A stretch of 64,000 bases of DNA from Torpedo marmorata (Eukaryota). The notes beneath the pieces were generated by a model that saw nothing but the letters and a program-made list of their open reading frames with translations, had not been told where the DNA came from and ran no database searches. The translations under genes were made by a program, and so were the position numbers. Location: NCBI GenBank assembly GCA_977017645.1, contig OZ360241.1:35836001-35900000 (forward strand), read 5' to 3'. How positions within the stretch are numbered: position 1 is the stretch's first letter; each line of letters opens with the position of its first letter. Positions 9,906-56,999 of this stretch are shown piece by piece.

Positions 9906-10151
<246 letters not shown>

Positions 10152-10649: not shown

Positions 10650-11180
10650 TTTGTTCGGGCGCCTGCCCACATTTTGTCCATACCTTGATGAAGAACTCAA
10701 GCCCCAAACGTTGGTTATGTAAAAACACAATGCTGGCGAAACTCAGCAGGTCAAACAGTGTACTTTATATAGCAAAGATACATAACCCGAAACGTTGGTT
10801 ATATCTTTATTATATAAAGTACACTGTTTGACCTGCTGAGTTTCGCTAGTATTGTGGAACTACTGAGTTTCTCTGGCATTTTGATTTTACATAACCAACG
10901 TTTCGGGCTTCATCAAGGTATGAGCAAAATGAAGGTAGACGTACGAACTCGGCGTATTCTGCACAATCTAAGCCCCTGGCACAAAGCGAGTGCCAATCAA
11001 TATTCGGGGAAGTTAAAATCACTCATTACAGCAACCCTTACCTTGATGAAGGGCTCAAGCCTGAAACATTGGTGGTGTATCTTAATCTTTGCTACATAAA
11101 GTGCACTGTTTGACCAGCTGAGTTTCTCCAGCATTGTGTTTTTACTTCAACCACGGTGTCCGCAGACTTGAGTGTCTTAC
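10650..11180. mobile_element. Cluster of nested palindromic Penelope-derived short elements in the TCF12 5' intron
   Basis: Repeated arms ACAATGCTGG.GAAACTCAGCAGGTCAAACAGTGT and TTGATGAAGGGCTCAAGCC.GAAAC in both orientations. Confidence 0.75.
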
Positions 11181-12010
11181 CTTCCCTCCCCTTCCCCAAA
11201 ACCACCAGCGCTTCCCACTTCACTTGCACCCGTCCCCGAGGGCGCTCACACAACTTTCTGCCGGGCTAACAATAAAACTCCACGCCGTTTGTTTACCTCC
11301 TCGCTGAGCATCCGAGAGCCCAACATTCAACGGGGAGCACCACGGGGTTCCCTCGCCTGCCGCAGCGACCGTCACGCAACCTGCCCTTCGCGGCGGCTCG
11401 ATCTCCCGGCCAACTTTCGGGGCTATCTCATTGAAATTCTCACAGATTGCGCTGCACCGTAACAAATGCATTCCCAGCGGCCGACATATTTACCCTCTTC
11501 AACGCGATCACATTGTGAGGCGGGGAGATATCCCTGCGCCAACATCCGGGGGATCAGCCAAAATACCAGAAACAAACTGGCAGATTGCGACCGGTAACGA
11601 CGCTCCCCAAACTCTACGGAAAATCCCGTCGCAATTGGCGTGCAAGAGCGGCGGTGGAAATCCGGCTGGGGGCGGACGACCTCGCGGTTTTCTCGGGGAC
11701 AATATTCCGCGTAAGACGACAGCGGACTACTCGAGTGTTGTGGGTTCGCTTTGAGTGACGGCTGGCCGGCCAATCGGAGGGCCGGCCCGCCCTTGACGGG
11801 CACGTTGTCGGGGGGCGGCGCGCATCCCATCGGCCGGCAGCTGGCGTGATTGGTCAGCGGGTGGCGGCGGAGGAGGAGCAGCAGCGGCAGCGAGCGCTCG
11901 CGGCCACTTCGGGCGGCGGGAGGAGGTTGGTGGCCGGCTGGCAGAGAGAAGCGAGGGCGAGGGCAAGGAGGAGGGGGGCGGAGGCTGACTCCTAACCCGG
12001 TTTCTTCGCA
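11180..12010. promoter_or_regulatory. CpG-island promoter of TCF12, possibly bidirectional
   Basis: GC- and CpG-rich, about 1 kb upstream of the ATG exon; CCAAT at 11770-11774 (+) and 11849-11853 (-), several GGGCGG boxes, E-box CAGCTG at 11838-11843. Confidence 0.75.
11297..11420 (-). other. TCF12: Candidate non-coding exon 1 of TCF12 (5' boundary unknown)
   Basis: GAG|GTAAAC donor (plus strand 11291-11296) at the downstream edge of the CpG island; the ATG exon has an acceptor, so an upstream exon must exist. Confidence 0.35.
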
Positions 12011-12232: not shown

Positions 12233-13680
12233 TCCTCCTCGAGTTGTCCCCGGGCCTCCTCCCGAGTTGCCCCCTCCCGAGTTGCCCCCCCCCGGGCCTC
12301 CTCCCGAGTTGCCCCCCCCGGGCCTCCTCCCGAGTTGCCCCCCTCGCCACCGGGCCTCCTCCCGAGTTGCCCCCCTCCCCCCCGGGCCTCCTCCCGAGTT
12401 GCCCCCTCCCCCCCGGGCCTCCTCCCGAGTTGCCCCCCCGGCCTCCTCCCGAGTTGCCCCCCCAGTCCTCCTCCCGAGTTGCTGCCCCCTCCCCCCGGCC
12501 TCCTCCCGAGGTGCCCCCCCCTGGCCTCCTCCCGAGTTACCCCCCCCGGCCTCCTCCCGAGTTGCCCCCCCCGCCTCCTCCCGAGTTGCCCCCCCCGCCT
12601 CCTCCCGAGTTACCCCCCCCGGCCTCCTCCCGAGTTGCCCCCCCCTGGCCTCCTCCCGAGTTACCCCCCCCCCCGGCCTCCTCCCGAGTTACCCCCCCCG
12701 GCCTCCTCCCGAGTTACCCCGCCCCCGGCCTCCTCCCGAGTAACTCCCCCCCCGGCCTCCTCCCGAGTAACCCCCCCCCGGCCTCCTCCCGAGTAACCCC
12801 CCCCCCCCCGGCCTCCTCCCGAGTTACCCCCCCCCCGCCTCCTCCCGAGTAACCCCCCCCCCCCCGGCCTCCTCCCGAGTTACCCCCCCCCCGCCTCCTC
12901 CCGAGTTACCCCCCCCCGGCCTCCTCCCGAGTTACCCCCCCCGCCTCCTCCCGAGTTACCCCCCCCCCCGGCCTCCTCCCGAGTTACCCCCCCCCCCGGC
13001 CTCCTCCCGAGTTACCCCCCCCCCTCCTCCCGAGTTACCCCGCCCCCGGCCTCCTCCCGAGTAACTCCCCCCCCGGCCTCCTCCCGAGTAACCCCCCCCC
13101 CGGCCTCCTCCCGAGTAACCCCCCCCCCCCCGGCCTCCTCCCGAGTTACCCCCCCCCCGCCTCCTCCCGAGTTACCCCCCCCCGGCCTCCTCCCGAGTTA
13201 CCCCCCCCGCCTCCTCCCGAGTTACCCCCCCCCCGGCCTCCTCCCGAGTTACCCCCCCCCCCGGCCTCCTCCCGAGTTACCCCCCCCCCCGGCCTCCTCC
13301 CGAGTTACCCCCCCCCCCGGCCTCCTCCCGAGTTACCCCCCCCGGCCTCCTCCCGAGTTACCCCCCCCCCGGCCTCCTCCCGAGTTACCCCCCCCCCTCC
13401 TCCCGAGTTACCCCCCCCCCTCCTCCCGAGTTACCCCCCCCTCCTCCCGAGTTACCCCCCCCTCCTCCCGAGTTACCCCCCCCCCTCCTCCCGAGTTACC
13501 CCCCCCCCTCCTCCCGAGTTACCCCCCCCCCTCCTCCCGAGTTACCCCCCCCCCTCCTCCCGAGTTACCCCCCCCCCCTCCTCCCGAGTTACCCCCCCCC
13601 CCTCCTCCCGAGTTACCCCCCCCCCGCCTCCTCCCGAGTTACCCCCTCCCACCCTGGGCCTCCTGAGTTGCCCCCCACCC
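12233..13680. repeat. C-rich minisatellite, unit about 20-26 bp (GG)CCTCCTCCCGAGT(T/A)(G/A)C(n), roughly 60 units
   Basis: Tandem array seen directly; variable C-run length. Confidence 0.97.
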
Positions 13681-23490: not shown

Positions 23491-24584
23491 AATAAGAATG
23501 GAACAAGACCTGAGACATGAGTCAGTAGGGAGGTCTTGATAAATTGATGGAGTTTGAGATACAGAGAGGTGCAGAGTTGAATGGATTTTGATGCTGGAAG
23601 ATGAATTGCCTTAGTCTGTCTCTGTGGTAGGAGCCAGATGTGAATCTGTTACCTGATTTGTTCCTAAAATACACCACCACACACATCAATGACTCCGTTT
23701 TTAATAAGATTCCCGAAAGCAAGTCTTCATCAATGATCTCGATTTTAATGTGGATCAAGACAAATGAATTTTTTAATGAGTGGCTTGTACAATTCATAAT
23801 CTTTAATCGCTTGGCCAGTTCTTCAGATTGAAAATTGTACTGTAGACTCTGCTGAGTTATTTTATTGGACTGAAAGTGTTTGAGGAAAATTATGATTCAA
23901 GAATAAAGATTAAAATATTTGTTCAAAATCCATTAATTCAGTTATCAGTTTGCAAAAGATTTTCACGTTTCATTATTCATACTTGAAGGGCTTATCCATG
24001 AAGAGCTTATTTAAACTTCAATTTGGGTTTCACTTGATGAACATATAGAAAATACAAAATGCTAAGATCCATTAAGGTGGAATTGGAACACAATATGTAA
24101 GAGGCAAATTAAATATTACCCCTATCAGCTCAATAAAAAATGACTACGAGGGATTCAAGTCTATAATGATTTCAATGCACATCCAAAAAGGGATGAGATT
24201 CTGAGATATTGTAGAAGCTCAGCTGTGTGATTGGGGACTTTCATGCCCACTCCAAGAATGTCTCAGTGGAAATCATGCAACTGCAACAGGAAAAAACATA
24301 AATTTGGCACAAAAATTGTAGCATATCAAAAGGTATTAATTACTAATCAACTTACTCAGAACTGAAAAAGCAAGCACACAAGCAAAATTCTGAAGTATTT
24401 ACTAGTGTTGTCGTGCCTTTGGTATTGTAATAACCATTGTTTTCCAAATCTAGATGTTCTTTTAGCTTGCTGTGAAAAAAATCATTATGCATTTGGCTCT
24501 GTTTTGGTAATGCTTGTAAGAACACAGAGCATGGAACAATACAGCACAGGAACAGGCCCTTCGGCCCACATGTCTATGCCGAAC

Positions 24585-24920
24585 ATGATGTCAGAATCAG
24601 AATTTATTGTCATGAACAAGTCATGAAATTCGGTGCTTTGCGGCAGCATCATAGTGCAATTAACATTCATATTAACCATTCTAACGACATTACTATATAA
24701 AATTATAAACAATAGTGCACTAGTGTCTTTGGTTCATTGATTGTTCAGGAATCTGATGGCAGCGGGGAAGAAGCTGACCTTGTGCCGTTGAGTGCTCGTC
24801 TTTAGGCTCCTGTACCTTTTCCCCGATGGAAGCAGCGTGAAGAGGGCATGGCCTGGGTGGTGGGGGTCCTTGAGGATAGAGGCTGCTTTATTAAGACATC
24901 GCCTCATGTAGATGTCCTCG
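24585..24920 (-). mobile_element. Rex-Babar-type LINE 3' end
   Basis: Reverse complement of the 60650-61000 segment, including the TGACAATAAA(TTCTGA)n tail. Confidence 0.8.
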
Positions 24921-25222
24921 AGGCGATGTCAACATTTTGTTCCATAGTGATTCATGCTTCTTGAGATATAGGGTACAAAAATAACAATATTATAATTATA
25001 GTTGTGATTAAAAGGGAAATTTTATGAATTTAAAGTGTAATGGAATCATTGAATCTACTTTTGCTATTTCTATTGACAGCTCTGAATCGAACCACTGGTT
25101 GTTTAAATTGATTTTTCATGGTCTCCATTCATGCATTGTCAAATGAGGAAGACCTGATCTTCCAGATTCCTAAGGCTATGCTCGTTAGTATTCCCTGCAA
25201 CTTGAAGTTCAATGGCAGCACC

Positions 25223-25796
25223 CAGTGGCGGATTATCCATTAGGCTTAGGCTGAAGCCTAGAGGCCCGGAGGGTAAGGGGGCCCGAGCCGCGACTCCTGC
25301 GAGATTGTGTTTACCATGTCCATGACTTCAGACGCTGTGATTGTGGTGCAATACACAAATGTGCTGGAGCAGGTCACGCAGCATCTATATGAAGTAAAGG
25401 GTAGCCTGGTCTCGGTTTATCGTTTCACACTTACTGCGCGGGTGAAGCCGGTGACTGTGGGCCAGAGTTGGTGCTGCGCCGTTGCCAGGGTGACGCGCGC
25501 GGTGGTTTCTGAGAGCTGGCGGCGGCGGCATGAAGATTTGCGACGTGTGCGAGGAGGGGGCTCCGAAATACCGGTGTCCAGCCTGTCACCTGCGGAAGTA
25601 AGTGAACAACAGGAGGGGTGTGCGGCCAGCAGTGTCTGACCGGTGGCCGGTACTGCTAAATGAGAGGCCAGTAGCAAGTGGCGGGGGTTGGCGACGGTCG
25701 GCGGGGGTGGCCTGGGCCGCAGTGGGGAGCGAGGGGCGCCAGGGGTAGCCAGGGGGGGCCTTACTAAAGCTCAGCCTAGGGCCCGGGTGGTAGTTA
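25223..25796 (+). mobile_element. Non-autonomous hAT-family element, copy B (right TIR eroded), carrying captured host sequence
   Basis: Starts CAGTGGCGGATTATCCATTAGGCT (23/24 match to the reverse complement of the copy A right end); 25754-25796 is 43/43 identical to the reverse complement of 54445-54487; 25287-25326 is homologous to the reverse complement of about 56024-56064; no TSD recoverable. Confidence 0.88.
25530..25597 (+). pseudogene. ZNHIT3: Captured ZNHIT3-like exon 1 (N-terminal half of the zf-HIT finger)
   Basis: GCGGCGGC-ATG context, reads MKICDVCEEGAPKYRCPACHLR + AA|GTAAGT; matches ZNHIT3 CxxC..PKYRCPAC at the extreme N-terminus; no following exon recognised in the window; too short for the ORF track. 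Confidence 0.8.
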
Positions 25797-26354
25797 TGCT
25801 ATTGCCACATAGTGGAATGATCACATTGGACCTGAAGCAGAATCCAGGAGCCCATTGATTTTTACAAGGAAGCAAAGGAGACAGTAAGTAATTCTTGTAC
25901 AATTATTTTACATTACATTAGTTCTCTTAAGTATTATTTGGTGTTTCATCCTGTTACCTTTTTATTTTTTTTCAATAATGCTTTCCTTAGTTTTAATAAA
26001 TGAATGTCAGAGACATGTAAAATGATTAAAATCACCCTTTATAAAATGTCAAAGTCGTATCTCTAGCTTTGTAGGCTGTCGAAGGTCCCTAAGTATTTCC
26101 AGGGGGGACATCCTCACAGCTCCACTGAAGGCACTACCACTGCTCAGGATATTGGACTCCTCCTACATGTGATAGGTCAGCAAGACTGGCTGTGTGTACC
26201 TGGCCCTGGTGTAGATGTGGCGGTGATTTTTGGCAAAGGGGGTTGGCTAATAGTATTGTTACAGAAAGATTGATTTGGGTCTGTAATGCTGATCATTGTT
26301 ATAACTGCTGCTTACTCTGTCTGGATTCATCACCATCCCTTCTCTTATGTATTT

Positions 26355-26568
26355 AAATTTAAATTAGTCATACTAACAGGCCCTTCCAGCCCATGAGCCC
26401 GTGCCGTCCAATTACTCCCAAGGGTGGGAGGAAATCAGAGCGCCCGGGGAAAACTCATGCAGACACGGAGAGAACATACAAACTCCTTACAGACAGCGCC
26501 GGATTTGAACCCGGGTGGCTGGCACTGTAATAGTGTTACGCTAACTGCTACACTAACTGTGCCACCCA
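26355..26568 (-). mobile_element. tRNA-derived SINE (HE1/V-SINE-like)
   Basis: Same family as 1151-1395, internally deleted. Confidence 0.8.
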
Positions 26569-27461
26569 CATTTAAAAGCTAAGATCCTATGTGTTAGTTC
26601 GATTGGCTTTTCCATTCAGAATTCCACATAAATAATAGTTTACCTCTTCCCCCTGATATCTAGAGAACCTCGATTGTGGGTATACAGTATTTCCATTGTG
26701 ATTTCTTTTTATGATCTGTACCAACTTACATTGAACTGCTTCTGCATTATTTATTCTCCTATTTAATGCAATCATTTTTCTGGTCATTTGTGTCCTTCCT
26801 CAGAATTTATTTTTTGAATTGACAAAAATGGTTACTGCTTAACAAGCAGCAATGACTATATTCCAAACGGAATTTTGTTGGCTGTGAACTACATTGAGAG
26901 GTCCAATGCACTATATAAATTTGTTTCTTTTCTGTTGATGGGGTAAGTGAAGGTAAAGGCAGCATTGTTGTGAAGGATTGTTGAGAGAGAATAAGTACTG
27001 TGGCCAAATTGTCTTTTTACAGTTTCTTTTATTATATTTTAAAATATCTAAGAATATTGACAGGAGCACAGACACTTTTAAAATATTTAAATTTCACCTT
27101 CGAGCCAAATTTAATAAGTGCCTGGAACAAAAGAGTTAAAAACAAACTCCTGGAGGAACTCAGTGGGTTGAGCAGCAACCGTGGAGGGGGAAAGGAATGG
27201 TAAATGTTTTGGGATGAGACTCTTCCTCTGGAACAAAAATATTTACTGCACAGTTTTAAATCTCAATTTGTGTCACATCTTCCACTAACAAGCTCAATCT
27301 TTGTAAAACTGACTTCTGCAGGAGATCTAACAATATAACTCTTCTGAGTCAGATTTAGATGACACTTAAATAAAAATGGACATATTAGAGTTTGAGAGAA
27401 CTTTGTTCATTGTGATGGATTACAATATTTTCTTACTCTGCAAAGCACTATCCCTCTAATA

Positions 27462-27708
27462 AATTTAAATTTCGAAATACAGCATGGTTACAGGCCCTTC
27501 CAGCCCACGAATCCATGCTGCCCAATTACATCCATCAACCTACCAACGCTGTACGTCTTTGGAATGTGGGAGAGAACCGGAGCACCCAGAGGAAACCCAC
27601 ATGGACACAGGGGGAACGTACAAACCTTACAGACAGCAGTGAATTCATACCCAGGTCGCTGGTGCTGTAATAGCGTTGAGCTAACCGCTACGCTAACCGT
27701 GCCACCCC
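27462..27708 (-). mobile_element. tRNA-derived SINE (HE1/V-SINE-like)
   Basis: Same family as 1151-1395. Confidence 0.82.
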
Positions 27709-30700
27709 AAATGAAAACCCAAAAAGTGAAGCTGAAAAATGTTTTTTAAAAAAAGCAGAAATAGTCAGGGACCCTCAGAATTTCAGGCAGCATTAGTAGA
27801 GAGAGAAACAAGATGAACTTTTTGGGCCCATGATCTTTCATGAATTGGAAAAGTGAGAAAATAAGTGTGGTTTAAGCTGCAGGCAATGTATAACTATGAG
27901 AATTAAGACATCATAAATTTGAGCGGCTCTGAAAGAAGGAGATGGAATTTCTTTAAAATGCATTAATTTCCAGGGCCTTGACAGAGATCATTTTATCCTC
28001 TTTAGCCAGGTCCCAAAGGACTGAAGAATAGCCAGTGTTGTTCCTCTGTTTAAGAAAAGCAATAGAGACAAACCAGGAACTTATCGGCTCTCTATGGCCT
28101 CACTTTTCCCTGTAAAGCCCTAACCCTCTGTAACCCTGATAACCTCTAATCTCCTCAAGTTAAATCTTTTGGAATCACTTTATTTTGCTTCTCCATTTGT
28201 GGTCTTTATATTAGCTCTGAAATTCCCTTCATGAATTTCCTCAGTCTTTCTACCTCTCTTCCTGCTTAAGACATTTCTAGTAACTTACCTCTGTGATCAA
28301 ATTTTTAGTGTCCTGTCCTTATATCTCCAAGTGACACAAGGTTAAATTTAATTTGAAATCACTCTGGTGAAGCAGCTTGAAATACTTGAACATGCTACAT
28401 GCTCTTTATTAATGTGAGTTGATATGTAGTGATACAGTGAACATCAGCAAACTTCCAGTGAGAGAGGATGTTAACCAGTGTGTAAGAGATCTTGAAAATG
28501 ATTACAAGTCACACCATTTTGGAAACATACGTCTTGAAGAAGTAGTTGGAATGGTTTCGCTGAGATACATCATTAAAAAGCACTTGATTTACACTGTATT
28601 TTGCAATTTTGTACAGTCCATAGCATGTTGCACCTGAACCCATTTACGGTGAGTAATCTCAAAATGATTAGTGAAGTCAATCATGTTAAAGGTATAGTTC
28701 AATATGCAGCAGAGATAAACCTTTTGAGCAAACAGTTGAAATAGGTGGAGTTTTTTTACAAAGTAGTTTTGACAACTGTGACAAGATGATATGGCAATAT
28801 AAGTGAGAAGGAAATAACTACAAAGGGTGAGAAATAGAGGAGTGTGTGAAGCACTGAGTTGCTATTTGCATAAGACCTTTACTATGGTTATATTTTTGCA
28901 CACTAACAGAATGATCGGCAAAGTTTATTCAGAAAGAATACTTCCTTTTTGAGCTCAAAATAACTGAATCTTAATTAAGCTTAATTTGCATGCAAATGCG
29001 ATCTCTCAGGCTTCATGTGAATTTTTTTTTTAACTGTACAAAGCAATACATAAAAGAAATAGATAAAAGATTCTGAAGAGCAGCGATTAGTCTGTATTAC
29101 ACCCATGTTTCAGACATGAAGAGAAACACTTTCGTGGTTGGATGGCCTGTGTCCAAAATGGTAAATTCATGGCTTCTGTCGGATATTTTAAACAGATGTT
29201 GGGACCCTTGAATATGTTATTCAGGACCTTACTCCTGAAGAAATTAAGATCTCAGTTTGCAGTACAGACGCTTACAATGTCTTTGATAATAACATCTTTC
29301 TCTATTCCTAGCACTATATTTTTGTTCTTTGCTCCATACCCTGGACTATTTGACTACTGTTACACTTCTCCTTACACCTATTTATTTGTTTATTTGTTAT
29401 TACTGCACTACCTGCTATACGAGTTGGATTGCCTGGATGGCCCGTGAAACAAAGCTTCTTGCTGTATTTTGGTACATGTGACAATAAACATTTCAATTCA
29501 GTGTTCACGATTAACACCATGGCCATCAATTTAATATAAATCTGGAATTATATTTGAGAATAAACCATTCCTGCATTGCTCGGTGTTCCTTCAATCTAAA
29601 AGCCATCGTTTTGCCACCGCTTTTATATTCTGTTCCAGCTGCCTCTCATGGAATTTACCCTAGGACTCTGACAGGCAGGGAAACTAGCCCTACATTGAAT
29701 CCTCTTGTCCAGCATGCTGAAATGGGTGTCACAACCCGCTCTTACTCCAAATACACTGATGAAGCCAAAGGACCAATGTGTATTCATCCGCAAGTCTCAT
29801 GGACCTGAAGAAAATATAGTACATGGCTCAGTTACATAACCAACTAAAATGTAAGTGATTTTTAAAAGGCTAAGCAATAAATCCTCATCCAAATTTGAAT
29901 TATGTGGAAAGTGTGCCAGGAGACCGGCAACTCTAGGTTCAAGAACAGTTTCTTTCCAACAGCTAACAAGCTCTTAAACCTCCCCTTGTTACAATAATCA
30001 GGGACTGCTCTGACACCAGAAAAGGATTGTCTGGATTATTGCTCAATCACTTTATTTGCACAAGGATAACTGATTATTATCTATTTATTTTTACCTATTA
30101 TCCATCTATAATGATTATTATCTATCTATTGTGTACTTATTGTCTCTTTTTAATTCAATTAAGTATACTGTTGATTTTTTTTAAAGTAGCTGATCAGCTG
30201 CAGCAAGTAAGAATTTTGGTGCATATGTACTTTGTACAATGTATATGACAATCAACTCATTATCATTCAAATTTTAATGAACTAACTGTGAATAAATAAA
30301 CTCTTTGAACATGTAGTGGTAAACTTGGAAATACATTTGTGGCAATTTAATTTATGTCTGGCATATGTGGGCAATTTGACTTTGTAACACTATACCCTGG
30401 ACTCTTTGACTAACTGTAACATCACACATTGCATTGTTGTTTCATTATTGCACTTCCTCAGTACGAGATGACTTGCCAGGATAGCACACAAAACAAAGCT
30501 TTTCACTGTACCTTGGTGCACATGGCAGTAAACAATTCAATTAAAATTTCCATGATTCTATGATAATCATAGCAAGTGAATGATAGAATAAATATAATAA
30601 ATGCATGTTCACAAGTCCATCATGAATGCATCAACTGAAATTTAGAATTCTCAGCCTAGAAATAAAATATATCCTATATGTATCATAAGTAAAACACGAA

Positions 30701-31249
30701 AGTCTGCAGACACCGTAATTGAAGTAAAAAGTTTCTGCAGCATCCTATTAACATCAGAGATTTTTTCAAATACTTTCTCATGAAATACATAAATAAGATA
30801 ATCCAAGCTTTCTAACTTCACAAAGGACAATATTCAGTATAAAATCTAATCAATGTGCTTGTTACCTTCAATGTCAAGTTTGTTACTGGTTTTCTCAAAA
30901 GGCAGTCAAAGTTACCGACTTTCCTTGTCTTATTTCCTTATCCCAGTGCCTCCCAGACGTCGTGAGAGGGAGAGATGTAAATGTGAAGAAATTGGACATG
31001 TACCTCGGGCCAGAGGCATCAGCTGCTTCTTTTGTTGTTCAAAGATTCTTAAATGAAGCAAGGCAGAAAGATTAAAATATGCATCTATGTGCAAAATAAG
31101 TGATTTTTTGGAAGCTTAGAAACATTGGGATCTGGTTAACTTGACTCATCATTACTTGAGATCCTGTCAAAGACAGTAATATCTGTGAAGTTATCGACGG
31201 AGTTGGAGCGATGTTTGGCCGCACAGTCATGGGTGTTAATGTTTTTTTT

Positions 31250-31490
31250 AAAATTTAGAGTTACAGCATGGTAACAGGCCCTTCCGGCCCATGAGCCCAT
31301 GCCACCCAAATACACCAATTAACCTACAAACCCAATACATTTTTGGAGGGTGGGAGGAAACTGGAGCACCTGGAGGAAACCCATGCAGATCACGGGCAGA
31401 ACATGCAAACTCCTTACAGACAGCGCCAGATTCAAACCCAGGTTGCTAGTGCTTTAATAGTGTTGTGCTAACCGCTACGCTAACCGTGCT
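31250..31490 (-). mobile_element. tRNA-derived SINE (HE1/V-SINE-like) inserted in a decayed Rex-Babar LINE (about 31140-31885)
   Basis: SINE consensus; flanks encode THDCAAKH..DNFTD and further RT remnants on the minus strand. Confidence 0.75.
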
Positions 31491-34400
31491 GTGTATAGTA
31501 CTGCTAACCATATAGTAGGGGAATGAGTGCACAGCCTTCCAGGGTACTGGTGTTAAGGATGATTGCGGAGGAGGTGTTGTCACCAATCCTCACTGATTGT
31601 GATCTGCAGGGCAGGAAGTCGTGGATCCTGTTGCAGAGTGGCCGAGGGGGATGCTGAGGCCAAAGTTTCAGAGTTTGGGGAAGAAATTATTTGATGTTGA
31701 AGACGGAGCTGTAGTCAATGAATAGTAGTCTGACATACGTGAGCTTGTTCCAGGGCTGAGTGTAGGGCCAGGGAGATGGCATCTGTCATTGACCTGTTGA
31801 GGCTTACTCAGAGACTGGAATTAAGGTAAGCCATGACCAGCCTCTCGATGCACTTCATGATGCTGGATGTCAGACCACCAGGTATTATCTCTGCCAAGTA
31901 AGAGTTATGCGACTCTAAGTTATATCTCCTCCCAGGAAGATTTTGTGTTTATTTTTTAGCTCTTTTTTCATCTTAAGCTTCACATTCTTCATTGGTTTAA
32001 CTACAGTATTGTCAAATCCAACCCTCACTGGTGCTGGTGTGTAGGTACCCGTTCCTTAATTCCCACACCTACCCTCCTGGAGAGAGCTGCCTGTGTAGGT
32101 TACACTTTCATCATGGGTTTTACTTTTCCTCACTGCCCCAGAAAGTTGTCGAACTCCCGGTTTCCTTAAGCATTTTGTGGGAGTTCTGGCCTCTAACCCT
32201 GGTCTGCCATTCACTGCGAGATGGAAATTCATTGGTAGTTCTCCAACCTGCCTATACAGTAGCTTGTCGGTGCACTCCAATTGCTACTGGATCTCTTTGC
32301 TGCCCAGTAATACAATTCTTTCCACAAAGTTGTCTCTCAATCTGTCTGACTCAATCCAACCTACTCCCATGATTGCTGGTGCATGCCCATAGCTGGACCC
32401 ATTTGCCCTGACTAGCAACTCAACAGTTTACCTCTCCAGAATGTCCCCCCTTCACATGTGCTGAAATATTTATTCCAAAATATTTATACACATTTATTTT
32501 ATATTATATTTTTATGTATATACATGATTATTATGTGCTGCACATTATGTTTGTATTGTGTGCGCACCAGGATCCGGAGAAATGCTGTTTTGTCTAGTTG
32601 CATATGTACAGTCAGATGATAATAAGCTTGAAACACCATTTTCTCCATATTCAATGACAAGTGGGTGAACTACTTCAAATTCATGTTCAGACTGACAAAT
32701 ACCAATCATACCTGTAGTTGCTTCCTCAATCAATAAGGTATCTTTCATGGTATTGTCCTCATCACAAATATCCTTGTCTCCACCCTTCTGAGACGCTTCA
32801 AAACATAATGACCTATGAAGGCAAAGAACAAAGGTAGTGTTCTCAACATGGCATCCCTTATTGAAGGTCATAAACTTTCAACCAATGGTAGAATCTGTGC
32901 CACAACACATCAATGGTTATGCCACCTGATACACTCTCAGAAAGGTTGTCATAATCCTGTAGCTTTTTGTTCACATTTTGTTGAAGCAAGATGAGTGTTC
33001 ACAACTCTGAAGTTTTTCACGTGTGTGTGGCTGGCCAACACCTTGGACCCTGTGGCCAAATGCTTGTGGGTGACAGATGCAAAAGCTACACAAGATTGAC
33101 AGTAAAGGCTATTGGTTTTCCACTATAGCACAGAGTCACATGATACTTATTTCGACCTGTAATGAGATTCTTAGTGAAAGATGAAGTCGAAAGTCTGTAA
33201 AGCATTGAATGCTTGTAAGGAACACTTTATGTGTAAGCTTGCTTTTGTTCAGGTTACAAGTAGTCATCATTTACAAACCTGCTTATTGGGTTATAAATGC
33301 TAAATCTGGCACATTAAACTGTAAGGAAAATATGGAGACCAGTTTTTTTTTTTTGTGGGTTTCCAAATCCAGTGCTCTAAAGCATAAACAGGATTTAATA
33401 GAATTCAATCTCTAACCAGTTACACCGAAGCAGTGATGGTGTTTTGTGCTGGTTTGGCGTCATGTCACTGCAGCTGGCTCATGATGGAGATGTGACTCTA
33501 CCACTGTCATGGCTATTAAACTAAGAACATCCTATACTTTTATTAGGGGGTCTCCAGATGAGCAAATTTACTCTGGGGTTGCTGCAAAATGCATCAGAAT
33601 GGTGAGATTGGAGCTGGAAACATCAGCGAGGCACCAATTACTACACTTAAGAAGCTTTTAGACAGACACTTAAATAGGCAAGGCACAGTCCTAAAATGGG
33701 CAAATGGGATTGTGTAGATGGGCAAAAAGGTTGGAGGGCCTGTTTCTATGTTGTACAACTCTATGACTTTAACCACTGTGAAAATTGTTTTAAAGGCTCA
33801 ACTGTGTCTTTACATGATAAAACAAAATGCATTGTCAGATGTTTTCTATCATGCTAATTGCTAGAATATTATAATATTCATCTATTTTAGTAACTATTTT
33901 AAATTGTTTCTCTAAGATAAAAAAAAAGGTAATGTCTGGAAGAGATAAGACTGTAAATGAAGAGATGTAGATTACCATGGCGTTTCTTGACGTGGCTGAG
34001 CTCATTTGAACATTTGTAGAGGAAATTGCCAGCAAGCCAGAAATGGAGTTATCCAGGCTTTCTGTCAACATTCCCCAACAGCCTGCCACAAGGCTTTGTC
34101 TGTCACGGAAACATTCGGTTCTTCTGGCAACTAAAAGATAACGGGAAAAATACCTTCATAACAAAAAAACATAATTACAGAAATTATATGTGTTTCTTCT
34201 TAAACTGAAGTTAATTGTACAAGTGTACTGCAAAATAAATACCAGTGACACCTCAATGATAATGCCCCTGGGGATTAACACATTCGCAAACATCATGCAT
34301 CAAGGGTTTGCAAAGGGAAATGATGCAGCCTGCCAACACTGGCATAAACACAGTGTTTGGTAGAAATAGGAGGTGTTTAAGAAACATAAACAGTATGTTT

Positions 34401-37269
34401 CTACAATAGGACAAAGCATCCATCTTGGAGTGAGTTCAGGGGTTCAAAGGCAATTAGAAAATTGCTTTAGAATGATGAGATCTGAAGCCCACGTTCAAAT
34501 GACATTATATCTCACTACCACTTTGGCAACATCATTTATTCTGAGTGCTAAGTAATGTTCACTCTCAGCAAAATCTCCTTTAGGAAAGAAGACATTTGGA
34601 CATTTGGAGGATGATAAGTTCACCAGTTATTTTCCCATTTGTTGCACTTTGTACAGTACCTCATTTACCTTGTAGGTTTGCAGGTCCACAGCAGGGTGGA
34701 GATGGTTCCTCAAATAAGACCTGCATTCAAATCACAAACTATGAAATAAAATGAGTGAGTTAGAATAAATATTGTTATCCTGATCATGTCAGAGGTTTGG
34801 ATGGTTTGGACTCAAGGCTGTGTGGTTGTGGAGGCTGCAGGAGCGCTGGAGGCGAATCCATGGACACTGGGAGGACTCACTTTTGCTTCACTTTCTCTAA
34901 GGGCCGCTGGGCAATTTCTGCCGATGGCGAATCTTTGTCTGCCTTACGGTAGACTAAAGGAAATTTTGTGTAATATCACATTTTCTGTTTTATTACGTGA
35001 CAATAAAAAATATTGAATATTAATTGGGTGTAAATTGGGCGGCACGGGCTCGTGGGCCGAAATGGCCTGTTACCGTGCTGTATGTCTAAATTTTTTTAAA
35101 AATTAAATTTAAACTGTTTTAGTCCGTTTTTAGATATTCAGATGACGGTCCAATGACAGGAAACCTTGGAAGCAATAAACACATGACAAGGCAAACAATG
35201 AGCTGCTGGAGGATATTGAGATAAAGCGTCCCAACCCTAAATGTTGGCTGACTATTTCTACCCGTGGATGCTGCCTGACCTGCTGAGTCTCTCCAGCAGC
35301 CCATTGTTTGCTCAAGATTCTAGCATTTGCACTTTTTGTGTTTCTCAGCACACAACAAGAGATGGAATAGGAATCATGGCACTTTAGCTTTATAAATACC
35401 CTGGGTTCCTTTGCAATTGTGCAAATGTCCTTTGTATGTTATAGCAAGCTAATTTGCACACCATTTAGAAATATAAAATATTTGGAAATAACTAGAAATA
35501 GGGTTTTAATTGGTTAGCAACGAGAGTGGCTTTGGATGGACAAGAGGACTCGTGAGTAGTTCGTTCACCAGTCTTTATCAGACAAGATCAGTGAAAATTG
35601 TTGTCCATATACAGTACAAAATTAAGCAGCTGCAATGAAAATTGTTCATAGAAACATAGGTGAGAGTTCCTGCATCTGAATGCTACTTTGACATTCAGTG
35701 AGATATTTATGTGGAATGAGAGGAGAGTGATGTACCTTCACCTTAACCACACAGTGAGACTCACAACCTATCCACTCAAAGAGGGTGTTGAAGTTTGTTT
35801 ATGTCTCAAAATACCCAGTGCAGTGAGAAGGGCTCTTCCATGAGCAGAATAACAGGTTATCTCTAACATTCATACAGCTATGTAAAGAGCACAATTAGAG
35901 AGTTTCAGAATAACCCAGAATGTGTTTTACTGCATGTAAAAAGCAAAAATTATTTGTCCCATTACATTGGAACATAACAAGAGAAGAACTCAAAAATTAT
36001 ATAAAATACAACATGACATTTCTTAAGATAAACTGAAAAATATGTTCACTGTATATTTAAATCTTTGATTAGCAGGCAATGTTTACACAATGTACAGCAT
36101 TGATTAAACATTTATGGAAATCTCCTGGACTTCCATCATATCTTTCATTTCAATGAAGATCAATGTCATCCACTCCTTATTTAGCAAATAGCTGGTAGTG
36201 AAATGAGTGGCAGGAGATCAGGAGGGAGTTGGTAAGTATGTTGGAGAGAGCAGGTCACTGAGAAATGTTTAGGGCAATGGGATTGGTGGAAATGAGCTGT
36301 GAGCTGGCATTGACTAAATGGACTGAATGGTCTCCTCCACTGTGTGAAATATATGAGATCTTGTGAGTGTGAAATGGATATAGGCTAATAGAGCCATCAT
36401 TCATGCCTGTCCTGATGGGTTGGGACATTACACTCCTATCACGTGCAGTGAAGTAGGAGATGAAACATACAGTTAAAGAGGGGCGTGAGGGCAGCACAGG
36501 AAATGTCAAGTGTAGAGAAGGATGGCATTTTCAAAAGCATTTCCCTCCAAGTACTTTCTCGTGAGTGATGTATCACTGGACTTAGAAACATCCTGATGAC
36601 TTGTGGTGACTCATTATCAGATGATCCAAATTCCGTTTTCCTGATGATAAATCTGTTTGTGAGTGCACCTTCTGACAACTGGCAGCTAATGCTGACAGAC
36701 TGATATTTGGTCGAGGACCTGTGTTATATCGGTTGCTGTCATCAAGTATTTTCAGGATGCTCTTGCTCACCACTTATCCATGTGTTGTCCTGCATCCTTA
36801 GATAGGTGTGGGAGTGCCGTAAATCAAATTAAATATTTAATCGAAGGTTGTTTGAAGGTGGAGCTTATGTAATGTTCACCAGGCTTCCTGTGGGCTTTCA
36901 GTAAATCTGTTGCTACACATTCTAAAACACAGCCATTAGATTTTGTTGGATCAAGATTTAAGTATTGGATGTGTTGGATCATCAGGAGTTGAATATTTTA
37001 CCAATTGAATTAACCACTTTATACCTGGATTCAGCTTTTGTTTTCTGTCTCTAGAGCAGAGTCATTTAGCCTTTGCACTCTTTAACCCAGAAATACAGTC
37101 ATTGTACGGAAAAAATTACCCTTCTAAGTACTGCATGAGCCAAACATTCTTTGCTCCCACTTCAAATATGCTCTGATTCTTAGTCGTTGAATAAGTTTGT
37201 TTGATCCTGTGATCAAGCAATAATGTACTTATTGATTTTTTTTTTTCTCAGCCTTAATTTTAAAAACTA

Positions 37270-37460
37270 CAGTAAAACCCCTGTTATCTGGAATTCAAGC
37301 AACCGGCAGCCTCAAGCAACCAGCAAAGAAATAGCGGAAAATAAATAGGTAAAAAATACGGAAGTTTAAAATTGGTGCACCTCGCCATTAGTTCACCAAT
37401 CACGTAACACACAATCGCAAGCAACCGGAAAATTCACTTATCCAGCATCTACCAATCTCC
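37270..37460 (+). mobile_element. Tigger-like DNA transposon left end, interrupted by a Penelope-derived element (about 37465-37680)
   Basis: TA|CAGTAAAACCCCTGTTATCTGG terminus with internal AAGCAACCGG repeats. Confidence 0.5.
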
Positions 37461-38987
37461 AAAAGTAAACACGAAAATCTGTAGACACCGTGGTTGAAGT
37501 AAAAAACACAAAAGCTGGAGAACTCAGCAGGTCAAACAGTGTCTTTTATGTAGCAAAGGTAGAAATACATAACCGACGTTTCGGGCTTGAGCCCTTCATC
37601 AAAGTATGAGAAAATGCCGGCAGATGTCCGAACAAAGGAGTGAGGGGGGAAGGGGGGTGGGAAAGGCAGTCTCCATAGGGACTGGATACCAAGGGTTTTA
37701 TTGCCATTGGATTCAACTTGGGTTGACCAAATTTTTTTTGTTGCCTTGCGGGGTCCAATTTTTTTGTTGCCAATATGGGTCAAGAAGATCTTCTGTTTTT
37801 GTGGTATTTTCAAAATTAAGCGGGAGTACTTCCTGAATGGCAGTCCTTTAGTAGTCTGCCTGCTTCTCTGATTTGTATCTCAAATTTTTTGAGCTGTTAT
37901 GGCTTTTTCATCATCTTGTGGTTCGAAGATTGTGCAACACAAAAGCCAAAATCTAATGCTTTGTCTACAGTAATTGTTCATGTTCTCTATTTTATTGAAT
38001 ATCTGCATTGCCATACAATGCAAAAGCAATTCTGTTAGAAGTTGCAATGGTTATCTGCTGTGGTCACTTGGTGTGGCGCCTGTGGTTGGATCATTTATTT
38101 ATCAAGTGCTCTGGATTGATATCAATTGTGTGTTTCTTTAACTTATGAATCTGTGTATGCAGAGCTTTACAAATCAAAATGTCTCGGGATTATTTGAAGT
38201 TGTCTACTCATGTGTTAAATGATTGGGTTTTTAATCAGAGAACTATTCATTCCTACATCTGATCTGAGGTACACTAGATAACATCAAGAAATGCATCTTT
38301 AGAGGGTAATTAGTGATTATTTTTAGTATGATTAATTCACTTAACCTGTGTGATTTTCTATTGTTGAAGATAATATTGTGGTTTACTATCATGGATTGAG
38401 TTTTTTTCATTTTAATTGTCATTACGTTAAATTCTGATTATTCATTTGTACTTTACTTCTCAGTATCCAACTTAAAAATAGCTTGGTGTTACTCCATTTA
38501 AAAATGTACAGATACCTTTTTATCTATTCTAAAAAAATCAATTGTTCTCAAATATTGCTGGCAATGGCTCTCTATTCCACCAATGCTGCCATTGTCAAAA
38601 GTTATCATAATTGTTCCTCAGTGTAATTGCAGGCTGCAAATAACTATGTAGTTGAAGCAAAGGTTTAATTCAGTGCCTCCCTCTCTAAACACATCCTTCC
38701 CAGTACTTCAGAACTATTAATCTCATTCCACCTTTCGTTCTTTATACTATCATTAAAGTTTAACACCTGCTTGCTATCACCTGGCCACTGTTTCCGTTTG
38801 CTCTTTTTAATCATTTGTTTGTAATTGATACAACTGTGGCTATTCACCTTGATTACTCAAATTGTTCCCTCTTCCCTTGTGTCAACTATATTAACGAAAA
38901 AAAAATCATTACCATATTTTTCAAACTAACGTTAATTTCTGAACAATATATCTGAGATTTAGTTAACAATTGATGTCAAATACTTTA

Positions 38988-39230
38988 GGGTGGCACGGTT
39001 AGTGTAGCGGTTGCACGACACCATTACAGTGCCAGTGACCCGGGTTCGAATCTGGCGTTTTTTTTCTGGAGTTTGTATGTTGTCTCCATGTCTGCGTGGA
39101 ATTCCTCCAAGTGCTCCGGTTTCCTCCCACATTCTAAAGACGCAGAGGGTTGGTAGGTTAATTGGTCACATGGATGTATTTGGGCAGCGTGGGCTCGTGG
39201 GCCAGAAGGGCCTGTTACCGTGCTGTAAAT
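38988..39230 (+). mobile_element. tRNA-derived SINE (HE1/V-SINE-like)
   Basis: GGGTGGCACGGTTAGTGTAGCGG A-box region, GGTTCGAATC B-box, family body. Confidence 0.85.
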
Positions 39231-40809
39231 TAAACGGTATTGTATCACTAACAAGTCAGACTCAAATGATTCCTGTTGCAATACCATAATTTCAAATTGA
39301 ACTATCAATTGGTTTAAATTTACCTTTCTCCCTTTTCTGTTTCAAACCATTCATTATGAATATTCAATGAGCCACCTCCTGATAGAATGCGTTAGAGATG
39401 GTTACAAGTGAAATTGGTTTGTGCTATTTTTTCCCACAGAACATGATCATTGAACAGCTTCAATTATCTAGGTGCTACATTTGGTTATCCCCATCAACTA
39501 GACAAGTATCTTGCCCCTCACCCCATCCGAGTGGGGATGAGAACAGCCTTTCACCATACATCTAGTCGAGGGAATTGAGCTTGAATTGAGAAGCAGAAGC
39601 CTCAGTAGGTGGGGAATTCTTGGGGGGTGGGTTCCCTGGACACAATAGGAATGTAATATCTGTGTTGCCTCTGACTAACTCTTCAGCCAGGACCCGCGTG
39701 ACTCATTTTTACCACAGCCCATTCGGTCAGAGAGGTACCTTTTGCAGCTCGCGTGCAGCCAGTAAGTACATTTCCCTGAGCTATTGCTTTCAGATAATCA
39801 AGTGCTCTATGGAACAGTCTCATTCCAGAATTACTGGAGCTATGGGAATGTAACCTATGGAATGCAACTGTTCAGAATTGCATAACATAGATTGTGAGCT
39901 TCGATTCACATCCTGGACGTTTTACTTGATTACCTTCAGGGCCACAGAGAATTTTCATGGTATTTTTCTCCTTGAAACTTTCAACTAATTGTACAATGTT
40001 TAGTTGCAGAAATGAATTTGACTCAAGTGTGACTCACTCAACAAATACTTGTAGACATTGTGTACAGAAGTAACTCAATCCTAGGGGTACGAGCAAAATA
40101 TTTTATCATGTGTTCCCCACTCAACATACTTCATCAGGTCTCCTCCATTAGTGGGCCAGAGATTTGGGCCAGCTGTCCACTGGTATCCACCTCATGACTC
40201 AAGGTGTCTTGATCTCATTGGTGTTTGGTGGCAGGTTCTTGTGCAATGTAACACATTTCCGATATTCTGCAACACCAATTTGTAAGAATGTTATACTATA
40301 GAAATGAGAAAAACAAAGAGTAAAACAGTTTAAAACACTTCAGAATGCATTAAAACAATTGAAGTATTAAACTAAACTCAATTAATTCAGAAAAGTGTCC
40401 TATCACTGGTTTAGACCCTTGCAGCTGTTCCTTCTGGATGAATAGAGATACCAAAATTGTGCATATACCCGGTGAAGTTTTCTTGGGAGGGTGCCCTGGT
40501 ATATATATGAAGGAACTGACTTTACTTCACATACCCTCCATAACAGGATTGCATGTGGATTTCAACATTGCAGTTGCAAATCCATAGCAACGCTATTACA
40601 GCGCCGGCGACCCAGGTTCGAATCCGGCGCTGTCTGTAAGGAGTTAGCATGTTCTACCCATGACCTGTGTGGGTTTTTTCTGGGAGCTCCAAAGCGTATG
40701 GGGTCGGTAGGTTAATTGGGTGACATAGGATTCATGGGCCAGAATATCACAATTCAGTGCAATATTCTCCATCCATTAAATGTCCATAAATACTTGTGTT
40801 AGATTTAGA

Positions 40810-54145: not shown

Positions 54146-54530
54146 TATGAACTGAATGTAGGTATATACAACCAGCTTTGGTAGACAGACTCTTAAAAGA
54201 TAATGTCTTTGGACAGTTTAACTGTACTTTTCTCCATACTCTACATTTTGTTCTATTAACGCAACACCCTGCACTTTTGTTTTATTCTTGCACTACCTGC
54301 TGTACTTGAGTATAGGTTGACTTGCCTGGATAGCATGCAAAGCAAAGCTTTTCTCTATATCTTGGAACACATCACAATGAATAATTCAATTTTTTTCAGC
54401 ACTGAATTTATTAATTACCGATAGCAGCGTAGACAGTGGCGGATTAACTACCACCCGGGCCCTAGGCTGAGCTTTAGTAAGGCCCCCTCTGACCTTGTCC
54501 CTCTGCCCCACGGCCCCCACCCTTCGTCCG

Positions 54531-54705
54531 ATGCTGTGACTGTGGTAAAACACAGAAATGCTGGAGGAACTCAGCCGGTCTCATAGTGTCCACAGGAGGT
54601 AAAGATACCTTGAAGAAGGGCTCAGGCCCGAAACGTCGGTAATACATCTTTATCTCCTACGGACGCTGTGAGACCTGCTGAGTTCCCCCAGCATTGTGAT
54701 TTTAC
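54531..54705. mobile_element. Palindromic Penelope-derived element nested in hAT copy A
   Basis: AATGCTGGAGGAACTCAGC / GCTGAGTTCCCCCAGCATT arms with hammerhead-like core at 54606-54641. Confidence 0.75.
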
Positions 54706-55071
54706 AACTCAATTTACAAACACGAGTTCGGCTTCTCCCTTTCGTTTTGCTGAGATTTCATTCAAAACAATTTATACATTACACGTTTTCTACAACTGTC
54801 ACACGAATAATAACAGACCAAATATCCCTGCAGCGAAGGAACGAAGTCAGCTTTCATTTATTAATAAAACTTGATTATGCAAAATCACAGAAAAACAATG
54901 ATTAAAAACGTAGACATATTAAAGTTTAAACAATCGCTATCACCTTTGGTTGTGTAATTTGAAGAGACATCACTGATTTAGTTTAATATTATGTAAATCC
55001 AACAATTAATTTAATGTGCAACCTTTTTTGCTGACCCTGCCTATTTCAATGAAATGTTAAAGCGGTGGGCC

Positions 55072-55172
55072 CGTCCCCCGTCCCGCTGGGCAGGGAGGAG
55101 GTCGCCGTCCCCCGTCCCGCTGGGTAGGGAGAGGTCGCCGTCCCCGTCCCGCTGGGCAGGGGGAGGTCGCCG
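55072..55172. repeat. About 3 copies of a 30-31 bp GC-rich tandem repeat inside hAT copy A
   Basis: CGTCCCC(C)GTCCCGCTGGG(C/T)AGGG..AGGTCGC repeated. Confidence 0.85.
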
Positions 55173-55573
55173 TGCCGCTCAGGCTGGGTGGGCGACCGCG
55201 GAAACCCACCGCGGCCCCGGGAGTAGACACGGGGAGGAAGGGCGGATAGTGGAGCGATACCAGTAACATAGAATGCCAGTTGATGAGTTGATTTCGGAGT
55301 TAAGATTGGAAATGTTAAACCAACAATAGAAAGATTAAAAAGTTGCAACTGCAGAATCCAAATTGGATTACAGTATTGATTTCCTTACTTCAACCTTTGT
55401 GTAGTAATTGTGAACAGTGTCAGAAATAGTCTAATAAACAAATTCAAACCAAACAAGCCTTGAAATCATGAACAAGAACCTAAACAATTAATCAGAGATA
55501 AGAAAGCAGCTTTCGCACAAACTGTGTTAGCAGGTGAATAGCCTTCAAATGATTATGGCAGTTGCTGACTTAC

Positions 55574-55953
55574 CTTCCTTCTGCTTCTGGTAGTCAGCTC
55601 CAAAGATTTCGTAGGGTGTTGAGCCGGCCCTCGATGCCGGGATGATGCCATTGGTGGCCGTGGCAGCCGTCGCCATGGCTAGCCCGGCTTCTGCAGCCCC
55701 TCCTCTGGCGTACATGCACTGCAGCTCCCTGGCCTCGTTCTCTTCTTGCGCTTGCTGCTGCCGGAGAGCCACCTGTGCAGCCATGACCCGTTGCCTCTCG
55801 GCGATCAGCATGCACTTGGCACATATGCAGTCCCTCCAGCGGCATAAGCGCTTGTGACCCTTGAACGCCAAGACCACGCCATGGTTACGACAGCGGGCGT
55901 GGTTCGGGGGTAACGCTCGGCGGCGGCTCTGAGCTGCAGGACAGGAGGCAGAC
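55574..55953 (-). pseudogene. Captured DMRTA-type (DMRTA1/DMRT4 or DMRTA2/DMRT5) DM-domain exon fragment, frameshifted
   Basis: [17 protein letters not shown] / frameshift / [81 protein letters not shown]|GTAAGT (donor at plus strand 55568-55573); 5'-truncated, no start codon, no downstream DMA exon in the window. Confidence 0.9.
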
Positions 55954-56102
55954 CTCAGACTCACTTTTTCATTGTTTGCGCCAACTTTTCGTGACGTGTG
56001 ACGGGTGGTGACGTAATAATGTCGTCATGGAGATGGTAAACATAAGCTCGCAGGGAGTCGTGGCTGCAGCCTGCAGTACGAAGTAAGTCCCTAAAAGTAT
56101 TA

Positions 56103-56331
56103 AAAAACATAAATGCTGCAGAAACTCAGCAGGTCAAACAGTGTCTTTTATGTAGCAAAGATAGAAATACATAATCGACGTTTCGGGCTTGAGATGAAGG
56201 GCTCAAGCCCGAAACGTCGATTATGTATTTCTACCTTTGCTACATAAAAGACACTGTTTGACCTGCTGAGTTTCTCCAGCATTTGTGTTTTTTACTTCAA
56301 CCACGGTGTCTACAGATTTTCGTGTTTTACT
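56103..56331. mobile_element. Palindromic Penelope-derived element nested in hAT copy A
   Basis: Near-perfect foldback about 56105-56292; 15-bp TSD TCCCTAAAAGTATTA at 56088-56102 and 56332-56346. Confidence 0.85.
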
Positions 56332-56999
56332 TCCCTAAAAGTATTACTTGTTTACTTCTGAATGTTTATATGTTTGGAACCTAATTTAGATAACAAAATA
56401 GTTTTTGTAATGAAAAAAATATATACAAAAGTACTGAAAAACTCAGGCAGCTCGGGCCCCTTCAGCCTCGTCAGCCTAATGGTTAATCCGCCACTGAGCG
56501 TAGACAAACACATTTAATGGACCGTTAAGCCACACACTTCTACTTTTCAATCTATGACTCTTTAAATATGTCTTTTACGCAAAATATAATTTCCTGCAAA
56601 AGTGCAATGGGTATGTTCGCGAAAATAATATTGTAGACTTCAATGGAAATTTACAGGGTATATTTCCTTTCAAATGGAGGGCGAAATCTTCCTGGAAAAT
56701 ATGTGTGCATTAGTGACACACGCCAGAATTGATATATAAAAATCAAATAATAAATAGTGAGGATTCAATAATGTGCCATGAGGTAATATTGCCAGGATCT
56801 GCCTCTTGCTTCAACACAAGAAGAAGTTATTGGCTGGGGTATTAGTTACCTGTTAACTTCACTGAAAGGAAGATAAGATTAAGAATGTACAGGAGTGAGA
56901 AGAAGTCAGTATTGGTTGGTACAGTATATTGGTAAGAAAGTAGCTAACGCAGTCATTATGAATGGGCTGAATTGACAAATGTTATTGAGAAGAGATAAG

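Follow-up and report, generated by a model that had tools for sequence, protein, structure and literature searches.

A copy of the ZNHIT3 first exon in a damaged hAT-type element of Torpedo marmorata, probably a captured gene start

We analysed 64,000 nucleotides of the Torpedo marmorata genome (contig OZ360241.1, positions 35,836,001 to 35,900,000; hereafter the window), which hold two copies of a hAT-type element, each with a piece of a host gene inside (Table 1). Copy B (25223-25796, plus strand) contains the first coding exon of ZNHIT3, and copy A, 29 kb away, contains part of an exon of DMRTA1. The closest gene recognised, which lies on the minus strand, encodes an E protein that we take to be TCF12-like; the first coding exon of this gene lies at 10071-10142 (PDB matches to E2A) and its CpG-island promoter at 11140-11990 (minus strand; about 11.1-12.0 kb), placing copy B approximately 13 kb upstream of this island. 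Directly upstream of the same island, 12254-13650 consists of 53 repeats of a 26-bp GC-rich unit in which CpGs are mostly retained (o/e ~0.8). A large inverted duplication at 45011-46976, with arms of 474 and 248 nt that are 93-94% complementary, is retroelement-like and carries a GIY-YIG-like motif; this piece, presumably Penelope, gave no Pfam match.

Table 1. Coordinates of the features in copies B and A (positions within the window)
Feature	Position	Strand	Remarks
Left end of hAT-type copy B	25223..25288	+	TIR 25223-25236, 13/14 against copy A, plus subterminal sequence
Internal 41-nt segment common to copy A (56024-56065)	25286..25326	+	BLASTN 88% over 42 columns
Truncated dispersed-repeat remnant, many copies in the window	25327..25404	+	Boundaries approximate; local alignment 63 against shuffled-query maximum of 42; BLASTN
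Promoter/5'UTR-like cargo	25405..25529	+	CpG o/e 1.09
GTAAGT, candidate donor of a putative head-to-head partner gene's first exon	25429..25434	-	95 nt upstream of the ATG
ZNHIT3 first coding exon copy	25530..25597	+	22 codons + AA; ATG at 25530, translation 25530-25595
Splice donor GTAAGT	25598..25603	+	Directly after exon AA
Intron-1-like cargo	25604..25749	+	25598-25749: GC 0.68, CpG o/e 0.74; assigned to the ZNHIT3 intron by position
Right subterminal end of copy B	25750..25796	+	46/47 identical to copy A; ends 11 nt before TIR tip
Sister copy A	54434..56496	-	Perfect 14-bp TIRs; 8-bp TSD 54426-54433 / 56497-56504
DMRTA1 DM-domain exon, 3' part, with GTAAGT donor 55568-55573	55568..55948	-	Frameshifted near 55900

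An earlier note on this DNA had described a start codon, a 22-residue peptide and AA followed by GTAAGT within copy B, and all of these are present in the sequence exactly as described. Unspliced read-through past the donor adds a single codon, Lys, and then a stop. The four cysteines of the peptide form the first part of a zf-HIT finger, and the proposed zf-HIT/ZNHIT3 identity was upheld. The peptide scored 30.4 bits against the Pfam zf-HIT profile (PF04438; cut-off 24.7, E=3.1e-7) over profile positions 3-22 of 30, and its closest named protein was ZNHIT3 of the pufferfish Takifugu, with 16/22 residues identical in a gapless alignment starting at Met1. Conversely, residues 1-22 of pufferfish ZNHIT3 matched the exon site at 44.7 bits, against a maximum of 23.5 bits in 100 Markov-shuffled windows. 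Human ZNHIT3 was the best PDB match of the peptide, albeit a weak one (E=0.15), and a language-model atlas search returned clusters below 0.9 and no recognisable family. An elasmobranch ZNHIT3 protein was not recovered by a representative search, which gave nine weak nameless matches, nor by two alignment searches, where the named matches were solely from Takifugu: two among ten candidates in one and all three in the other.

The earlier note had further proposed that the first intron of ZNHIT3 splits a Tyr codon, and that a substitution has changed TA to AA in this copy. Named pufferfish ZNHIT3 continues from R22 to Y23, and the human chain also has Tyr in this column. A 59-residue library ORF, whose stretch matching pufferfish residues 1-22 is identical to them, terminates right after R22, which would follow from an exon ending in TA if the first intron base, G, completes what reads as a stop. 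These observations indirectly favour the split codon, at an intron site predicted from the proteins, and TA may have changed to AA in this copy; the available part of PMC13736010 holds no exon-boundary data. Judged by its sequence, then, the exon at 25530 is a copy of the ZNHIT3 first exon with its donor and the start of its intron. A chance Cys-rich peptide or a processed pseudogene might be entertained, as the match covers just 22 residues, the PDB match is poor and the language-model search pointed to no family, and we give this next to no credence. Chance is made very unlikely by the gap between 44.7 bits and the shuffled windows, the alignment from Met1 and the end of similarity at the inferred intron site, and a donor and intron that are kept while exon 2 is missing are the reverse of a retrocopy.

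No other part of ZNHIT3 was found in the window. When two pufferfish ZNHIT3 isoforms were searched against it by tblastn, residues 1-22 alone matched, and the next best alignment had E=0.12. An acceptor-anchored scan for exon 2 across 2371 downstream AG sites peaked at 17 (self score 59), and none of the six frames contains the pattern C[SG]xxCxxxH. Neither a later ZNHIT3 exon nor the C-terminal domain (PF21373) was present in the 38.4 kb downstream or elsewhere in the window, where Pfam was run on 228 of 312 non-repeat ORFs of at least 50 aa plus five chosen extras, a set that comprises all but two beyond 13.6 kb. Only retroelement-type families (RVT_1 and ALKBH8_N) passed the curated cut-offs, and no hAT transposase was found among the window ORFs scanned. 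Rfam gave no match in 24000-27000 at E<=1, nor in the window at gathering score. The later-exon probe was teleost ZNHIT3 and its downstream reach 38.4 kb, so that exon 2 beyond an intron of over 38 kb would have escaped it. The earlier note had held that splicing to a downstream ZNHIT3 exon 2, with no second genomic exon 1, would speak against a captured copy; no exon 2 lies in the 38.4 kb downstream of 25597.

A zf-HIT finger requires, for ligand pairing, further Cys and His ligands beyond its first four cysteines. With those four cysteines alone and no C-terminal domain, copy B is, as far as its sequence indicates, incapable of encoding ZNHIT3, and a protein role for its peptide is unlikely. 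ZNHIT3/Hit1 is a zinc-binding assembly factor of box C/D snoRNPs with two domains (PMC9418376). The exon copy shares with it the N-terminal CxxC...PKYRCPAC stretch from the start codon but has neither the remainder of the finger nor a C-terminal domain, and is therefore a fragment (PMC9418376).

The note had placed the exon in an isolated GC- and CpG-rich patch enclosed by hAT termini. The patch is as described: 25405-25749 has a GC content of 0.66 and a CpG o/e of 0.92, against 0.42 and 0.41 for the window. The enclosure proved sound on the left, where 13 of 14 TIR bases agree with copy A, but not on the right, where copy B stops short of the TIR tip and the 8-bp duplication is absent. After 44 further matching subterminal bases, 3 of the 14 bases of the right TIR are left, and copy B thus does not have a TIR at both ends. 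The left 8-mer has no exact copy in 25223-40000, and none of its six one-mismatch sites adjoins a TIR tip; a search for a displaced right TIR tip, allowing up to three mismatches, found none with a matching duplication. A GCCAC 7 nt past the break, and a TGCTAT in common with the copy A flank, were judged to be chance. Because the right tip (11 nt) and the target duplication are missing, copy B is probably immobile and stranded, to judge from these remains. Just beyond its right end, 25813-25889 contains an AG...GTAAGT pair that could delimit a 71-nt exon; the acceptor at 25813 has a weak pyrimidine tract, and the candidate exon gave no Pfam match. The repeat remnant between the left end and the cargo is presumably Penelope-associated.

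Copy A is a structurally complete hAT-type element with both TIRs and a TSD. Copies A and B have their common segments in the same order and orientation, with 7 mismatches in 129 aligned bases plus indels, and so belong to the same family; the right end of copy B alone found copy A at E=2e-15 in a self-search of the window. Pegasus, the class of the silkworm element BmMITE-14, we take to be hAT. The first 13 bases of the copy A TIR are those of the BmMITE-14 TIR, which belongs to a "Pegasus-like" MITE with an 8-bp TSD (PMC2997013), and hAT elements have 8-nt TSDs (PMC8903248).

The DMRTA1 cargo of copy A is clearly dead. It is identical to the little skate sequence at 98 of 113 residues, and the similarity stops at the GTAAGT donor; a database search returned one odd top record and then seven elasmobranch DMRTA1 proteins in succession. 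Its frameshift falls where the DM domain begins; further DMRTA1 exons were not found in the window. Relative to all seven elasmobranch proteins the cargo has 11 residue changes, 4 of which, in our reading, fit CpG transitions. Two ATG-led mini-exons with donors, at 56027-56088 (plus strand) and 55959-55972 (minus strand), stand back-to-back over ~55 bp of CpG-rich DNA. The plus-strand donor, at 56083, ends a short frame that opens with ATG and takes in the 41-nt segment present in both copies, and the other is a GTGAGT at 55964. The arrangement suggests a captured two-way promoter of unnamed genes, 41 nt of which was kept in copy B. The shared segment may itself be older cargo, as its copy A counterpart sits in a putative mini-exon ending at GTAAGT. 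Approximately 380 bp of copy A (56066-56447) are not in copy B and have AGC at both bounds, which fits either a microhomology deletion in copy B or an insertion in copy A; a near-perfect palindromic repeat (56101-56294) lies inside this stretch. A second GC-rich patch, 55065-55260 (GC 0.76, CpG o/e 0.84), contains a 32-bp tandem repeat, gave no Pfam match and is possibly another captured CpG-island piece.

We considered whether the exon in copy B could be exon 1 of the genuine, live ZNHIT3 gene, in which case exon 2 would lie over 38 kb away and the hAT ends would be coincidental or co-opted, and regard this as very improbable. A live exon would explain why the start codon, each of the four cysteines and the donor are undamaged, why the CpG o/e of the patch (0.92) comes close to the 1.02 of the genuine CpG island nearby (p=0.57), and why the window contains no second copy of ZNHIT3 exon 1. 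It would nevertheless turn the conserved Tyr position into Lys or Asn, would have no later ZNHIT3 exon in the 38.4 kb that follow, and would be flanked within 574 bp by matching left and right hAT ends, in the same layout in which the sister copy carries its dead gene piece. The neighbourhood argues against it as well: human and mouse ZNHIT3 sit in a MYO19/PIGW/HNF1B block (PMC10655816), unlike the E-protein gene surroundings of copy B, in a comparison that covers these two mammals.

From the retention of CpGs relative to the DMRT cargo, the earlier note had suggested a more recent capture or an unmethylated state for the ZNHIT3 cargo. The direction of the difference stands (CpG:GpC of 31:38 against 27:48; o/e 0.92 vs 0.73), but it is not significant (Fisher p=0.31), so neither later capture nor an unmethylated state is borne out. 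The 5' part of the ZNHIT3 cargo alone gave 20:21 against the same 27:48 (p=0.24), and its intron part, at an o/e of 0.74, is like the DMRT cargo. An RFX X-box-like site at 25481-25494, assigned by what we take to be the X-box consensus, occurs once in the 64 kb and arose in 36 of 20000 shuffles. The minus-strand GTAAGT in the 5' cargo has a chance of ~0.02 per 125 bp and was spotted post hoc. Copies A and B together contain 4 of the 25 GTAAGT hexamers of the window (1.0 expected, p=0.018) and 5 of its 54 GTRAGT sites (p=0.07), p-values that are partly circular because two of the donors are the already known cargo donors. For frames at the extra donors and the copy B flanks, Pfam gave nothing above cut-off (0 of 11 other frames and 0 of 2) and PDB gave no match. 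The extra donors and the X-box-like site suggest captured two-way promoters and serial capture, and we treat them as leads only.

The same features bear on whether the cargo could be functional, as an unmethylated ectopic promoter or enhancer that would give rise to a chimeric or non-coding transcript or tune the E-protein gene 13 kb away. We consider such a role unlikely. The high CpG o/e of the 5' part (1.09), the X-box-like site and the donors on both strands are what it would predict, and human exon-bearing Pack-TIRs are transcribed in 5 of 8 cases (PMC8277862). However, CpG retention is not significantly above that of the decayed DMRT cargo, and splicing in silico to three pyrimidine-rich acceptors within 2 kb and to the 25813 acceptor adds 4-34 unrecognisable residues and then a stop. 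The copy B cargo is most likely a neutral relic; any activity as an ectopic promoter and splice donor would be weak at best.

The explanation that we favour, at a probability of roughly 80%, is that a non-autonomous Pack-type hAT element captured the 5' end of ZNHIT3 as DNA and that the result is now a non-coding relic. Because the donor and intron-like DNA are retained, the copy is one of DNA rather than mRNA; both copies hold exon, donor and intron, which is to say genomic DNA. The capture is inferred from this anatomy; no ZNHIT3 parent lies within the window, which extends 25 kb upstream and 38 kb downstream. Under this scenario, a hAT-type element would have taken approximately 350 bp of the host ZNHIT3 5' end (promoter/5'UTR, exon 1 and the start of intron 1) into its interior, perhaps when a break inside the element was mended by template switching or gap repair at the ZNHIT3 5' region, a mechanism taken from the literature. 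The common ancestor of copies A and B would already have had the shared internal segment, and the cargo would then have diverged to DMRTA1 in copy A and ZNHIT3 in copy B. A hAT transposase supplied from elsewhere would have moved the element, which would have landed ~13 kb upstream of the E-protein CpG island, and a later deletion would have taken the right tip of copy B together with its target duplication.

Capture may have preceded the move or may have occurred in place. In the latter case an empty hAT element would already have sat there when repair of a break inserted the ZNHIT3 fragment, and no transposition would have followed; this differs from the favoured explanation in the order of events alone, and we regard it as rather unlikely, with a share of probability that overlaps that of the favoured explanation. 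Copy B has no target duplication that would show movement with its cargo, and its own transposition is presumptive, given the missing TSD and the 3 of 14 right TIR bases. Most animal Pack-TIRs are, moreover, single-copy and made by gap filling (PMC8277862). Yet 56.9% of the cases in PMC8277862 lie within 15 kb of their parent, whereas here none lies in the 25 kb upstream or the 38 kb downstream, and the fact that both copies carry cargo, each from a different distant gene, fits ongoing capture by a mobile family better than patching in place.

Gene capture by hAT elements in animals is already known and is reported to be rare; its frequency here and the lineage would be new. In 100 animal genomes 370 Pack-TIRs were described, 208 of them hAT, or about 2 per 10,000 TIR elements (PMC8277862). 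Like those, the copies described here have non-autonomous hAT ends around a short piece of host DNA, an exon with adjoining intron copied at the DNA level, and the cargo of copy B (~350 bp) compares with a median of 224 bp (PMC8277862). Unlike those, which are rare and mostly near their parents, two of two copies here carry cargo and have no parent nearby (PMC8277862), although the capture rates are not directly comparable because that pipeline was strict and the present window had been flagged for these features. Of the rules used in PMC8277862, which call for at least 10 bp of terminals at both flanks and for 100-5000 bp of host DNA that is no intronless retrocopy, copy A satisfies the terminal rule and copy B fails it on the right; the cargo of copy B agrees with the second, at ~350 bp of exon, donor and intron-like DNA. 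A further rule there asks for a unique parental copy of at least 90% identity that the element does not itself flank; the window holds no parent. Copy B is thus a damaged relic acting like a Pack-TIR, rather than an intact Pack-TIR. The elephant shark row of the available PMC8277862 supplement, the one row found for a chondrichthyan, has 0 cases, and ZNHIT3 and DMRT do not occur in that part of it. No report on gene-capturing hATs in sharks or rays, or on the copy B locus, was found among the literature matches listed.

Plant Pack-MULEs and Pack-hATs offer a second comparison (PMC5861414, PMC8903248). There, too, the cargo differs from copy to copy within one family, consists of GC-rich gene pieces and can combine several loci in one element, and hAT elements have an 8-nt TSD; the plant families are genome-wide, with many copies and measured expression, whereas here we have two copies and their sequence (PMC5861414, PMC8903248). 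Among vertebrates, the bat Helitron HelibatN3 carries the NUBPL promoter, 5'UTR, first exon and part of intron 1 (PMC4224331). The anatomy of that cargo is the same as in copy B, with the same bias to 5' gene ends and a vertebrate host, but Helitrons are rolling-circle elements, while copy A has TIRs and an 8-bp duplication (PMC4224331).

On a tentative reading of the sequence, to which we grant somewhat less than even odds, an elasmobranch hAT family would repeatedly copy CpG-island gene 5' ends, several per element, and spread them genome-wide. The two copies would then hold, besides ZNHIT3 and DMRTA1, up to three further putative gene starts (donors 25434, 55964 and 56083), in a sample of two cargo-bearing copies out of two that is tiny and pre-selected. 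Taken by itself, the single locus amounts to a damaged transposon enclosing a dead piece of a gene, with a risk of ZNHIT3 mis-annotation or of confusion in read mapping. If the capture-prone family is real, the plant Pack-MULEs and the bat Helitrons would have a counterpart among the TIR elements of vertebrates, and some captured starts might still be promoters near developmental genes. A bias towards open CpG islands and the order of serial captures would then be testable in one assembly. A genome-wide pattern of this kind, if true, would mean that a cut-and-paste element shuffles promoters and first exons at a high rate in a vertebrate lineage that evolves slowly.
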